DNA of 63,084 nucleotides, the filler included, from Nanobdellota archaeon (GTDB lineage Archaea > Nanobdellota > Nanobdellia > B33-G15), in assembly GCA_003660925.1 (NCBI GenBank). It is 14 parts of 14 records of this genome, joined end to end, with 100 filler letters (N's around TTAATTAATTAA, not from the genome) between each part and the next. Parts side by side here need not be neighbours in the genome. Positions count along the whole stretch, not along the records: positions 5,081 to 10,058 come from QMVD01000049.1; 13 more parts are not named here. One strand, given 5' to 3'. Both the position numbers and the translations under genes were made by a program. The notes under the pieces were generated by a model. That model made no database searches and was not told the DNA's origin. It saw nothing but the letters and a program-made list of their open reading frames with translations. Positions 6,138 to 53,820 of the stretch are shown piece by piece. Position 1 is the stretch's first letter. Every line of letters starts with the position of its first letter.

Positions 6138-6255
6138 TAGCGGGGGGAGGATTTGAACCTCCGACCTCCGGGTTTCCCTCGGCATCAAGATGGGCCGGTA
6201 TGAGCCCGGCGAGCACTCCAGGCTGCTTTAGGCTGGGCATCCCATCTACCCCGCT
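6138..6255 (-). tRNA. Initiator tRNA-Met(CAT) with two introns: 25 nt at 37/38 (6174-6198) and 18 nt at 10/11 (6228-6245)
   Basis: Removing both inserts gives the 75-nt cloverleaf AGCGGGG-UA-GAGC-AGCCUGGAGU-GCUC-G-CCGGG-CUCAUAA-CCCGG-AGGUC-GGAGG-UUCAAAU-CCUCC-CCCCGCU-A; A1-U72 and three G-C anticodon-stem pairs mark it as initiator; exons identical to version B. Confidence 0.95.
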
Positions 6256-6824
6256 ACCTGGAGGCCCCTTTTGTACCTCTGTACTTTCACAGAGTTGCTC
6301 TCCGTGTTAATAAAGTTAACGGGTACGTAGAGTCTGTACGAGGGAAGCCTATCTCTCTTTGATTTCTTTCTCTTCTTTAATACCACTCTCATTCCCAAGT
6401 CCTCAAGATATTTCTTGATGAGACACATCACTTTTTTGCTTGTATTAATGAGCATGATCATCCTCTCTGCAGGGTTGACATAGCCCTCAGCATCGATGAA
6501 CCCTGAGATGAAACCGATTTTAAACTCCTTAGAAGAATCAACCAAACTCTTCTTCTGAGCTATGAGGGCCTCATAAAGTCGTTTTGAGCGAACCCTCACC
6601 CTTATTGAATTATACCTCTTGTCCTTACGAAAAGATGGTTTCGTCCCAATTTTAAGCAGGAGTCCTCGTAGGAAATTGACTACATCTGTATCTTTTTCCG
6701 AGTTCAAAAAGAATTCTATGGAATAATGTCTCTGCTTTTTGTCATGGTACGCGTATCCGTCACCAAGAAAGAGACCAAAAAGATATCCTTTTTCTTTCTC
6801 GGTTAGCGAGTCCATCTTTACCAC
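6246..6824 (-). CDS. Free-standing two-motif LAGLIDADG homing endonuclease in the tRNA 5' leader (start GTG 6824 or ATG 6815)
   Basis: YLFGLFLGDG and GFISGFIDAEG motifs; AT-richer than neighbours; absent from version B. Confidence 0.9.
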   Translation of the reverse strand: MVKMDSLTEKEKGYLFGLFLGDGYAYHDKKQRHYSIEFFLNSEKDTDVVNFLRGLLLKIGTKPSFRKDKRYNSIRVRVRSKRLYEALIAQKKSLVDSSKEFKIGFISGFIDAEGYVNPAERMIMLINTSKKVMCLIKKYLEDLGMRVVLKKRKKSKRDRLPSYRLYVPVNFINTESNSVKVQRYKRGLQVAG

Positions 6825-6847
6825 GCTGTATTTGAGTGCTTGGCCTC

Positions 6848-12111: not shown

Positions 12112-13824
12112 TTACCTCCAGAGCCTCGACTTACCTGGAAGGACCTTAATAACCTCCTCAGCCCCTACCCCTAAGATCTTGGCTATTTCCTCTGCCAACT
12201 CCTCGGGCTCTTCATCCCCTGGATAGGTCAAAACGTAATGCTTAGTTTGTTTCCTGATCGCACTCCTTGGACCAGCTATGACCTCTCCTTCGCTACGACC
12301 TACGGCCAATTCGGGCTTCACGTCCTTGACATATTTCTTCTTTCCCTTTATCATGAAAGACCCTTTAGGCATGTACATGCCCGAAGGGGGGGCTAATCCT
12401 ATCTGATGGGGAGAGACGCAGAAGACATCGACTGCTCCGTATCCCATCTTCCAAGCCTTCGAGTAATTAACGGTGTTCTGGGCTGCCTCCTGAATGGTCT
12501 TCTCCCCTGCCTCCTTCCCGTTCTTTATCAGGGTGAAGGGAGAACCATGGACGTCCGCGTGTAGGACTAGGTCATTGGGCTCCATGTATTTTCTTATCAA
12601 AATCTCGTTCTGTTTAGCATCTCTTCCAGATATGACGAGGAAACCTTCGCTAGAGATGAACCAATGGAACTTCTCGTACCACTTTTTCTTCCTTTTCTCC
12701 TTCTTGACTTTGGGCTTCTCTTCTTTTTTGACAACGACCTGCTTCGCCCTCTCCGCTTTCCTCTCGTACTTCTTAGCCAAATCATAATACAAGTTCAAGT
12801 TCTCCCCTAAGCTCCTCTCAAGGCTCAACTCTATCCCGTCTATGACTACAGCCCTTTTTTCAGGGTCATAAGAATCTATCCTCCTGCCGAAGTGTTCCAG
12901 GAATTCATCCACTCCATACCAACCGTACTCACTTATTCTCTTCCTCAGAGCATTGAAAATCTCTTCGAGCTCTCCGAAGTTCTCTATGATATACTCCGCC
13001 TTTTCCTTGTATTCCTTCGCCTTCCTCTCGTGTTCTTTGTAATCTATGACTATCTCCCTCTCTTCCTTCTTCTCTTCCGCCAAGCTGTCATATGCTTCGC
13101 TCAGGGTCTCGAAGCGCTTCCCTTCCCCCCTCATGCTCTTGAAGGGAAATGGGAGGACCACGCCGTTCATCACTAAAGGTCTCACGCCTTTCTCCTTCAG
13201 CTCTTCGATGGCTCTCCTTATCTTTTCTATCTCTTCATCGCTCAGTTCCCTTGGACTCTTCGTCTTCTTCACGCCAGCCAATGCACATATCTCCTCCGCA
13301 TATCTCCCCCCGAATCCCATGTCCACCGCCAAGAACCTCACGACATCCTTCCTCTCGCTCTTCTTAGCGTCTTCGAGTTTCTTCGTGGGAGGAGGCGGTT
13401 GGTAAGGGGTCCTCGGTTTCACCCACCTCGTCCCGAAGTTCTGGATATGAAGGGGGAAAATGATGTTAAGATCTTCATCGCAGAGGATTATATTCCCGGG
13501 TCTCATGACCTCAAATATCAACTTGTGTCCACCTATCTCAAAAATCACTATTCTCTCCATGTCCAACTGACTTATCTTCCTCAGCTTCTTGTTTCTCAAG
13601 TACTTCCTCAGCAGCATGCAAAAGTTGGAAGGCACTTGCTCTCTCTCCTCTTTTTCGGTGAGATACAGACCTCTTCCAGGCCAGAGCTTGAGGACGTACT
13701 CCTTCCCCTTGTAGAAGTGTAGGTAGTAGGTATCTCCTTTGTTGTAGATTCGTTCTAACCTTGCTCCTTCCAAGAATGAGAGTTCCCTCACTATGTGATA
13801 TACATCTAAACTCGCCTGCTCCAT
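12112..13824 (-). CDS. rqcH: RqcH/NEMF (NFACT) ribosome quality-control protein
   Basis: FCMLLRKYL, KWYEKFHWFISSEG, GRDAKQNE, HADVHGSP. Confidence 0.92.
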   Translation of the reverse strand: MEQASLDVYHIVRELSFLEGARLERIYNKGDTYYLHFYKGKEYVLKLWPGRGLYLTEKEEREQVPSNFCMLLRKYLRNKKLRKISQLDMERIVIFEIGGHKLIFEVMRPGNIILCDEDLNIIFPLHIQNFGTRWVKPRTPYQPPPPTKKLEDAKKSERKDVVRFLAVDMGFGGRYAEEICALAGVKKTKSPRELSDEEIEKIRRAIEELKEKGVRPLVMNGVVLPFPFKSMRGEGKRFETLSEAYDSLAEEKKEEREIVIDYKEHERKAKEYKEKAEYIIENFGELEEIFNALRKRISEYGWYGVDEFLEHFGRRIDSYDPEKRAVVIDGIELSLERSLGENLNLYYDLAKKYERKAERAKQVVVKKEEKPKVKKEKRKKKWYEKFHWFISSEGFLVISGRDAKQNEILIRKYMEPNDLVLHADVHGSPFTLIKNGKEAGEKTIQEAAQNTVNYSKAWKMGYGAVDVFCVSPHQIGLAPPSGMYMPKGSFMIKGKKKYVKDVKPELAVGRSEGEVIAGPRSAIRKQTKHYVLTYPGDEEPEELAEEIAKILGVGAEEVIKVLPGKSRLWR

Positions 13825-52527: not shown

Positions 52528-52808
52528 GGTTGGAGGAGCTCGTGAGGAAAATCCCAGAGGGAAGGGTGACCACTTACAAGGAACTGGCCAGGGTCCTGGG
52601 AACCAGTCCCAGGGTGGTTGGCCAGTTGTTGAAGAGGAGCAAGGGGATCCCTTGTCACAGGGTAGTAAGGTCCGATGGGAGCTTGGGTGGTTACAGGGGG
52701 AAGAAATGGAGGGAGAAGAAGAGGTTGTTGGAAAGGGAGGGAATCAAGATAAAAGGTAAGTTGATAGTGGACTTCGAAAAGGTCATGTTCAAGCTCTCCT
52801 CAAGATGA
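52524..52808 (+). CDS. ogt: MGMT (version B)
   Basis: IPCHRVV. Confidence 0.9.
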   Translation: MRLEELVRKIPEGRVTTYKELARVLGTSPRVVGQLLKRSKGIPCHRVVRSDGSLGGYRGKKWREKKRLLEREGIKIKGKLIVDFEKVMFKLSSR

Positions 52809-52929
52809 CCTCCAGCGTGTCCCCTTCCTGAACCCCGAGGTGGCGGACTATGTTCCTCGGCACGACGAGATATCCCTCACAAATCGATGGGCCCTGAGCC
52901 CCACTGAGATGTAAAAATAATAGGAGCAT
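52789..52929 (-). CDS. 46-aa ORF with AbrB/SpoVT-like C-terminal half (version B only)
   Basis: GYLVVPRNIVRHLGVQEGDTLEV; GAGGAG upstream of ATG. Confidence 0.45.
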   Translation of the reverse strand: MLLLFLHLSGAQGPSICEGYLVVPRNIVRHLGVQEGDTLEVILRRA

Positions 52930-53048
52930 CCGCTCCTCTTGAGTTGTAGTTCAGCCCCTTTTGCGGTTCTTTTCGTGTCGTCTTTTGGAGGGAGGTACGT
53001 ATGTTAAAAAAGTAGCGGGGGGAGGATTTGAACCTCCGACCTCCGGGT

Positions 53049-53741
53049 TTCTCTCGGCATCGTCTCTACCACTAACTCCTTCCGCTGTTTTAAAGCTTTT
53101 GATTCAAGATTTCTCTCAGAACTTGGAGTTTTTCCTTCCCGTATCTGAGATTTCCTTTTCCTCTCCCTATCTTCACCCCGTGACTGAATCCTATCTTCTC
53201 GAAGAACTTCTTCAAGTTATCTCTTCTGCTGATGATTATTCCTAACCTGTCATAATCTTCACGTGCGGGGATCCCAATTTCACGATGCAGTTCCAAAAGA
53301 AAGTTTCTAACTTTCTCATCTTTTTGTCGCCCCCTCAACTTAATCGAACGTTTCTTCAGATCTATCGAAATGGTGCCTTCATCGTCCCAAAAAGCCCTTA
53401 AGAATTCCGTGATTTTCTTTTCATCTTCTTCCAAGAATTTTGCCAGTAAATCTAAATTTGATGTGAAATCGTTGAGAAACTTCCAAAGGAATTTACTCGA
53501 AAGCTCAACCTCATAAACGTCATTCTCCCTGCGTCTCTCATAGAAATGCGCATCAACCAAACGTTTTACGTCCGTCTTAAACTGTTCGATAAGGACGTAA
53601 TTTTTGTTGGCAAAACCTACGATGTAAGAACCTGCATGGCATCTGAGCCATCCATCAAACAGAACATGGGAAATTAGCCTTGCCAAGCCCATAATGAGAA
53701 GAATTCTAATTCATTTAAAAAGGGTAGGGGGACGATGCCAG
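53049..53741 (-). mobile_element. BHB-type tRNA intron encoding a homing endonuclease
   Basis: Bulges UA|C and AA|A around central helix CUCA/AGAG; closing stem UGGCAUCGUC/GACGAUGCCG plus CUACC/GGUAG; ORF in the loop. Confidence 0.9.
53090..53692 (-). CDS. Intron-encoded two-motif LAGLIDADG endonuclease
   Basis: RLISHVLFDG and EFLRAFWDDEG motifs; C-terminal KFFEKIGF. Confidence 0.9.
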   Translation of the reverse strand: MGLARLISHVLFDGWLRCHAGSYIVGFANKNYVLIEQFKTDVKRLVDAHFYERRRENDVYEVELSSKFLWKFLNDFTSNLDLLAKFLEEDEKKITEFLRAFWDDEGTISIDLKKRSIKLRGRQKDEKVRNFLLELHREIGIPAREDYDRLGIIISRRDNLKKFFEKIGFSHGVKIGRGKGNLRYGKEKLQVLREILNQKL

Positions 53742-53820
53742 TATGAGCCCGGCGAGCACTCCAGGCTGCTCTACCCCGCTACTTAAACGCCCCTACCCAT
53801 ATTCGAGTAATTTGCTATCG

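Follow-up and report, generated by a model that had tools for sequence, protein, structure and literature searches.

A 25-nt tRNA-iMet intron as the likely ORF-less counterpart of a 693-nt endonuclease-bearing intron in a Nanobdellota archaeon

Two tRNA-iMet alleles and their introns

The window analysed here, a stretch of 63,084 nt, joins 14 contigs, with N linkers between them, from a 672-kb archaeal bin of 77 contigs (88.5% complete, with archaeal marker hits) whose host probably belongs to the DPANN. Two separate contigs, C49 (locus A) and C60 (locus B), carry the same region, pmbA/tldD – tRNA-iMet – MGMT, and since their flanks are about 95-96% alike, the bin appears to hold two mixed strains. 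The features of both loci are as follows, with positions counted along the whole window.

6138..6255, minus strand: tRNA-iMet gene, allele A (exons 6246-6255, 6199-6227 and 6138-6173), with the same mature body as allele B
6174..6198, minus strand: intron A, a 25-nt BHB intron at position 37/38 of allele A, which recurs in locus L042
6228..6245, minus strand: 18-nt BHB intron at position 10/11 of allele A, with 4/4 central-helix pairs; not in allele B
6246..6824, minus strand: P0001, a free-standing LAGLIDADG gene (192 aa) whose end falls within the first exon of the tRNA; missing from allele B
6257..6263, minus strand: 5' leader complementary to the D-loop, whose CCAG co-occurs with the 10/11 intron
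52802..53005, no strand: non-coding segment separating tRNA B from MGMT, which exceeds its counterpart in A by 181 nt and is also present in L027
53013..53780, minus strand: tRNA-iMet gene, allele B (exons 53742-53780 and 53013-53048)
53049..53741, minus strand: intron B, a 693-nt BHB intron at 37/38 whose terminal stem is long, and which matches no Rfam family
53090..53692, minus strand: P0002, an intron-encoded two-motif LAGLIDADG protein (200 aa) with a predicted I-DmoI-like fold
53714..53719, minus strand: TATA-like box, its start 27 nt ahead of the ATG of the endonuclease, possibly an internal promoter of the P0002 gene

Once the introns are removed, the mature 75-nt tRNA-iMet bodies of the two alleles are identical. 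A T-arm scan detected no iMet gene in the bin besides these two loci, so that the tRNA-iMet copy of each strain should be spliced; one PF01974 match over the cut-off (G000:C6) represents the splicing endonuclease gene of the host. Both introns agree with canonical archaeal BHB tRNA introns in position (37/38), bulges and host endonuclease, from which splicing is predicted. Allele A escaped both ARAGORN and Rfam when these were run on the window, in which Rfam at its gathering score recovered two other tRNAs only; a relaxed ARAGORN run gave mostly false calls and was left out.

An earlier sequence-only reading had paired the two 37/38 introns, and its coordinates, intron sequences and insertion position are borne out, with the exons intact. 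The ends it described as common to both are confirmed as well, with 12 of the last 13 nucleotides and four of the first five identical, including all seven letters from -13 to -7, positions which are not dictated by the exon. It had also pointed to a common BHB geometry with an A35-A mismatch. Each intron does have a central helix of three pairs and this mismatch between two 3-nt bulges, but a 3/4-pair central helix is ordinary (57 of 95 background introns). The AUC that it noted near the 5' end and the complementary GAU are present in intron A, but lie 2 nt apart and cannot pair as they do in B; the predicted stem of A comprises 4 bp. Intron A is a hairpin-forming intron of less than 50 nt without an ORF. 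In allele A the 5' end of the intron can pair with the exon anticodon stem, and this rival fold is predicted to be more stable than the BHB fold by 6.1 kcal/mol at 37 C and by 2.7 kcal/mol at 70 C. For intron B, and for a related intron of genome G041 introduced below, the BHB-compatible stem lies within the predicted minimum-energy fold. Nine letters of the allele B leader (about 53790-53800) are complementary to the start of the long intron.

The endonuclease of intron B looks intact, as judged from its open frame, its conserved residues and its modelled fold. P0002 matches Pfam LAGLIDADG_3; its two acidic motif residues (D13 and E105) are invariant in 12 relatives; and the top Foldseek matches of the predicted structure (pLDDT 94.5) are I-DmoI (E 5e-9), while a search of PDB by sequence gave no match. 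Rfam covariance models at gathering score detected no group I core in intron B.

Further introns and inserts were observed in the same host and in other genomes. Outside the window, the host carries a tRNA-Phe gene (G000:C18:1055-1706) with a 652-nt LAGLIDADG intron at 30/31 and a full BHB, in which the ORF has its AUG at the first intron letter and its stop in the 3' exon, and would extend to 255 aa if read round a circular intron. Five genomes searched for tRNA-Phe alleles as a possible second short/long pair gave no match, a result that carries no weight. Also in the host are a tRNA-Ile(UAU) by our own reading (G000:C30:2830-2920; Ala according to ARAGORN) with a 17-nt intron and full BHB, and a tRNA-Leu (G000:C4, near 13260-13396) whose D-loop contains an insert bordered by repeated exon sequence. 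At iMet 37/38 itself, L172 (G024) and L166 (G011) possess introns of 408 and 404 nt, respectively, whose ORFs encode a different type of protein (LYWCEG motif) and whose ends do not resemble those of A and B; by sequence these would constitute a second long-intron family at this site.

Intron ends and the distribution of the family

The ends of introns A and B were compared with a background of Met-type 37/38 introns drawn from a genome scan (at least 120 stretches, introns of 10-40 nt), a metagenome scan (34 loci) and single loci. These sources gave 145 gene rows from 176 loci, 109 of them with an intron; four rows were dropped for exon duplications or N, identical sequences were merged, and with A, B and the G041 intron set aside there remained 95 background introns, 90 of them at least 13 nt long and a few of elongator types. 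This background is not random and includes kin; nonetheless, the gap that separates it from A, B and G041 is wide. Among the 90 introns listed, no more than 9 of the last 13 letters matched B, no more than 8 matched A and no more than 10 matched G041, and the best agreement over positions -13 to -7 was 5/7, compared with 7/7 among A, B and G041 themselves. An A at -6 occurs in six of the 90, and the position-wise product over these introns for the 12 letters common to A and B is about 2e-6. Further, the stem of A and B was not seen by eye in seven other short anticodon-region introns of the genome.

These comparisons bear on convergence, in which BHB constraints, or local copying of the GCCGG/CCGG exon stem, would have generated like ends in unrelated introns. 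Positions -5 to -1 are indeed strongly constrained, the 5' end of the intron is complementary to exon GCCGG, and the same ends recur in a distant genome, all of which convergence could accommodate. It is difficult to reconcile with a background in which none of the 90 listed introns comes near A or B, and in which GCCG at -10 to -7 is found in none of the 19 listed introns that share the GCCG exon context. Moreover, only 6 of 4005 pairs of listed background introns agree at 12 or more of 13 positions, and all of these are among near-identical introns: five are within the short introns L074, L098, L121 and L146, three of which are named Sulfolobales or Thermoproteota records, and the sixth is L113/L145. 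Convergence is thus largely refuted by the sequence comparison already, and we regard it as very improbable. As the ends of A and B are absent from unrelated Met 37/38 introns, their similarity is best attributed to homology rather than to splicing constraint. The sequence-only reading had named the occurrence of such termini in unrelated introns as the observation that would overturn it; with 0/90 among the listed introns, its central claim, that the short intron is the ORF-less counterpart of the endonuclease intron, stands and is well supported by the end comparison. Introns A and B are almost certainly a homologous short/long pair. A candidate second pair, L007/L066, agrees at 11/13 letters, yet mostly at constrained positions, and was rejected.

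A third member, the 29-nt intron TCGGCATCACTTGAGTGATGCCGAGAGAG of G041, has the same ends as A and B (among the matches listed), and its predicted fold is a clean hairpin atop the same BHB. G041 belongs to another family and is related to the host at the level of class only; its locus differs in GC content (31% vs 49%) and at eight exon positions. This intron came from a search in which 195 of 401 class genomes matched, with 150 of 398 rows listed; a search for the 3' junction motif with two mismatches allowed found it in one of 400 class genomes (G041), the host genome standing outside the 400. The sequences show common descent of the A, B and G041 introns.

Alleles lacking the intron are present in close relatives. 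The 37/38 intron is absent from the congener G001 and from metagenome contig L027, and two other genomes of the family have either no 37/38 intron or an unrelated one of 39 nt (among the matches listed). Such a patchy distribution would fit horizontal movement better than inheritance. In sequencing runs X1 (possibly the source sample) and X2 (which resembles the same data), contigs span the long intron, and there are also contigs with the short junction and contigs in which the exons meet with the entire 693 nt left out, the last of which may stem from other taxa; in X3 and X4 coverage extends to parts of the long intron, and no joints were recovered. No RNA run was among those listed as containing the stretch. 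These independently assembled contigs also speak to an assembly or binning artefact as the origin of the pair, a notion prompted by a bin that mixes strains and a window made of 14 joined contigs. As L042 has the same 25-nt intron in different flanks, and as contigs from X1 and X2 include the short junction and extend across the long intron, we find such an artefact scarcely credible. Two loci merely repeat the introns (L021 repeats B, L026 repeats A) and were not counted. One X1/X2 contig (records 5 and 12; window 53715-53780) aligns, at 7-8 differences, to the 5' exon plus the initial 27 nt of the intron before running on for 378 unlike letters, and is possibly a further long allele.

No allele of intermediate length between 25 and 693 nt was found among the metagenome loci, the 400 class genomes and the runs. 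Among viral contigs, all 18 junction-motif matches lie in non-tRNA context, and two protein scans revealed no relative. In Aenigmatarchaeota, six of 371 genomes matched the 5' junction motif, none of them a further family member: L237 is a chance match inside a membrane-protein gene, and the other five correspond to an unrelated intron family. The iMet 37/38 introns of Aenigmatarchaeota loci L238-L242 keep their 5' end over lengths of 30-158 nt, the longer ones having gained A/T-rich hairpin modules; in some of the genes the T-arm, too, contains inserts of a similar kind.

Endonuclease genes, probable cassette transfer and the direction of change

The closest relatives of P0002 suggest an old association of the enzyme with this site. 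P0005, 42% identical to P0002, falls into the same clade (support 100/97), together with P0006, P0010 and P0013. Alone among 157 proteins, it opens with MLAGLI, which is what the iMet 5' exon encodes in frame 1, and although the protein is known without DNA context, it appears from this to be encoded in an iMet 37/38 intron. The motif-1 His lies 64 nt into this putative intron, compared with 74 nt in B. Letters fixed by the P0005 codons depart from A, B and G041 at position 2 of the stem, and at position 7 they depart from B and G041, whereas on the 3' strand A, B and G041 agree with one another at 7/7. Of the eight fixed letters within the first 11 positions P0005 matches A, B and G041 at four each, so that the 5' side alone does not rank the three introns. 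Given the likely origin of P0005 in an iMet intron and its diverged letters, the pairing of enzyme and intron looks older than the split between A, B and G041. DNA loci of the close sister enzymes were not found in the 401 class genomes or the 371 Aenigmatarchaeota genomes. More distant relatives of P0002 often lie near tRNA genes: ARAGORN calls one at five of the nine loci from the class and at eight of the 30 from Aenigmatarchaeota, raw counts uncorrected for tRNA density, and two of the relatives are located within intron calls (L200 and L212). The former is a tRNA-Glu call with an 855-nt insert (L200:1423-2371), and the latter a tRNA-Lys (L212:1258-2170) with an 839-nt intron, a long terminal stem and an endonuclease gene containing stops. 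At the G041 locus (L164:1659-2526), HTH-like and LAGLIDADG ORFs lie tail-to-tail directly 3' of the tRNA-iMet gene with the 29-nt intron.

Allele A adjoins a different enzyme. P0001 matches Pfam LAGLIDADG_3 (E 5.5e-16) and could not be aligned with P0002 (best E 0.2). The gene and the 10/11 intron form a cassette found in four alleles, comprising type 1 (A and L042) and type 2 (G001 and L027), which are 14% apart. Of the 13 alleles that have a 10/11 intron and whose leader is readable, 11 show CCAG in that leader, compared with 2 of 29 without the intron; the association extends to L002, L004, L011, L014, L015, L031, L036, L076, L240 and L241. Based on this co-occurrence, the D-loop-complementary leader is probably the outer helix of the 10/11 BHB. 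The leader of L017 matches the D-stem instead of the D-loop. A 10/12 look-alike of the tRNA 5' end lies before the P0001 gene, at promoter distance (about 6816-6827), and is not found in type-2 cassettes. We rejected a giant intron around P0001 delimited by this 12-nt look-alike, given the acceptor mismatch and the absence of the look-alike from G001 and L027.

Within each cassette type the endonuclease gene is far more alike than its surroundings. Between A and L042 it differs at 5 of 476 positions, compared with 69 of 938 in the flanks (about 1% vs 7%, p 3.8e-8; the L042 flanks are 6-9% different from those of A), and between G001 and L027 at 3 of 559, compared with 106 of 785 (p 2.5e-22). 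In L027, cassette type 2 and an empty 37/38 site are set between flanks that are B-like on both sides. That a selfish gene should be more conserved than its housekeeping neighbours argues for recent transfer of the cassette as a block. The identical block of A and L042 runs through the tRNA gene with both introns (0/118 differences), the tRNA exons being expected to be alike regardless. The 25-nt intron occurs in both type-1 alleles and neither type-2 allele, a linkage that rests on two alleles per type. Together, these findings suggest that intron A now probably hitch-hikes with the cassette by co-conversion, the cassette enzyme and 10/11 intron being the likelier present transport of the 25-nt intron; the likelier target of P0001 would be the 10/11 region, not 37/38. 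If each intron splits the site of one enzyme, allele A would resist both. In L042, an 84-nt deletion directly after the first motif marks the upstream endonuclease gene as a decaying copy within a recently transferred cassette.

Regarding the direction of change, we moderately favour loss of the ORF, with the 25-nt intron a leftover of the long form. The introns of A, B and G041 descend from one ancestor, as their sequences show. By analogy with I-DmoI, the enzyme of intron B would cut intron-less alleles in their uninterrupted anticodon region, the intron then being copied in during repair. Once the site is filled the ORF would be dispensable and could be lost by deletion within the loop; the terminal stem and the BHB would remain as a short intron, still to be removed by host EndA. 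As the remnant keeps the target split, its allele would resist the long intron. The cassette of allele A moves between strains as a block spanning the tRNA gene, in which the 25-nt intron would now be a co-conversion passenger. Consistent with shrinkage from a longer hairpin, A retains AUC/GAU across a 2-nt gap that cannot close a loop. Decay of such genes is documented by the L042 deletion and by the stops within the L212 tRNA-Lys intron, and one old union of enzyme and intron followed by ORF loss would be the shorter story as far as sequences go. This full scheme, with the 25-nt intron as the ORF-less member of a small BHB family specific to iMet 37/38 that includes an endonuclease-bearing long form, is narrowly favoured when taken as a whole.

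Several observations run against ORF loss. By hand count, the edit path to A is about equally long from B (five events) and from the short G041 intron (six), and C2 and a UUGA run are common to A and G041 and missing from B; LAGLI also arises by chance in the membrane-protein gene of L237; the TATA-like box before the ORF of B is what would be expected of a self-contained cassette; distant enzyme relatives are often free-standing near tRNA genes, offering raw material for intron invasion; and the L238-L242 introns vary in length with their ends kept and without any ORF. A number of these point instead to a landing pad, with a G041-like short hairpin intron as the ancestor, a free-standing endonuclease specific to the iMet anticodon entering its loop to produce B, and A eroding separately without ever having had an ORF. 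Two of the three sequenced members are short and come from different families, A and G041 both adjoin a free-standing LAGLIDADG gene in addition to sharing C2 and the UUGA run, B may have an internal promoter, and for group I introns such a route is on record under the name of collaborative homing (PMC3984707). However, the sister enzymes P0002 and P0005 would have had to enter iMet 37/38 introns twice, or intron ends would have had to be exchanged, and the LAGLIDADG neighbours of A (no significant alignment) and G041 (25% identity) are so far from P0002 that neither is the donor. The landing pad is consequently rather unlikely in our view. The sequence-only reading had offered remnant and landing pad side by side without deciding between them; the new data tilt towards the remnant, short of proof.

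The short intron could also be a shield, that is, a fragment of a mobile intron captured in faulty break repair and kept by the host to block cutting or integration at its only initiator tRNA gene. Short, long and (less surely) empty junctions do occur within the same runs, protection by intron gain has been proposed (PMC3293823), and abortive copying from both intron ends would yield a two-ended fragment. By sequence, however, a shield makes the same prediction as the remnant, and intron-less congeners persist; we consider it improbable. Two further ideas were discarded: an origin of the core of A from inside the endonuclease ORF (a 7/8 match only, with about 0.25 expected by our estimate), and a box C/D guide role (A has no D box, and B lacks a C-like run).

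Comparison with known mobile introns

At the iMet locus, close relatives carry one essential gene in empty, short and long versions with candidate enzymes attached, so that the presumed homing cycle is testable with two proteins and four DNA substrates. The pair thereby points to a testable way for archaeal tRNA introns to arise and spread; alleles of this kind escape standard tRNA finders and are probably under-counted. It is conceivable, if doubtful, that homing endonucleases are a main engine of tRNA intron gain in DPANN, through invasion of tRNA genes by enzyme-bearing BHB introns, ORF loss to ordinary-looking introns of 15-40 nt, and onward spread of these, families being crossed as well, in the company of other endonucleases that have docked at the same tRNA gene. 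The more general proposal of the sequence-only reading, that short archaeal tRNA introns can be remnants of or landing pads for mobile introns, gains support here, but from one intron family.

Archaeal tRNA introns have been reviewed as ranging from 11 to 129 nt, with the mechanism of their transposition described as unknown (PMC4090602). In the literature covered (main texts, few of them from subscription journals; including PMC6125680, PMC11915505 and bioRxiv 10.1101/2020.01.27.920355), we encountered neither an endonuclease-bearing BHB tRNA intron nor a short/long pair. A 2026 preprint on Asgard tRNA introns (bioRxiv 10.64898/2026.10.13.758758) tested copying, mobile elements and reverse transcription and arrived at no general route; its main text does not mention homing.

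The nearest parallel is provided by archaeal rRNA BHB introns with LAGLIDADG enzymes (I-DmoI, I-Tsp061I), for which short hairpin (HP) and remnant forms are described at the same loci (PMC4496867). As in those introns, the ends form a BHB, the enzyme is by its model a two-motif monomer resembling I-DmoI, long and short forms with a conserved core occupy one site, and close kin have intron-less alleles. Unlike them, the host gene is tRNA-iMet and the two forms occur in strains about 95% alike. Likewise, intron B resembles I-DmoI-type mobile introns in having a two-motif ORF with acidic residues in its loop and intron-less alleles (G001, L027), but its host is not an rRNA gene. Taken together, and with enzyme activity predicted, the pair would represent the rRNA homing-intron cycle placed in a tRNA gene.

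Further systems match parts of this picture. The hairpin intron Pog.S1205 of Pyrobaculum oguniense 16S rDNA homes by co-conversion through the Pog.S1213 enzyme (described in PMC4496867). Intron A is likewise an ORF-less hairpin intron within the transferred tract of a neighbouring endonuclease gene (two alleles per cassette type), whereas its neighbouring enzyme is free-standing, lies upstream of the tRNA and has the 10/11 region as its likelier target. In phage collaborative or trans homing, a free-standing endonuclease acts together with a group I intron that lacks an ORF, a proposed route to composite mobile introns (PMC3984707). The locus resembles it in pairing a free-standing enzyme with ORF-less introns in a target gene, and differs in its protein-spliced BHB introns, LAGLIDADG enzymes and chromosomal tRNA gene, with two endonuclease systems at one 75-nt gene. 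Finally, tRNA intron transposition in Thermoproteales and strain-level heterogeneity of tRNA introns in Caldiarchaeum (PMC4090602, PMC3293823) offer related short introns of patchy occurrence, gained or lost within a population, as seen here. In those cases the mechanism is given as unknown or integrase-based and the introns recur across tRNA types; by contrast, the present family was seen only at iMet 37/38, and carries a candidate mobilising enzyme inside one of its members.
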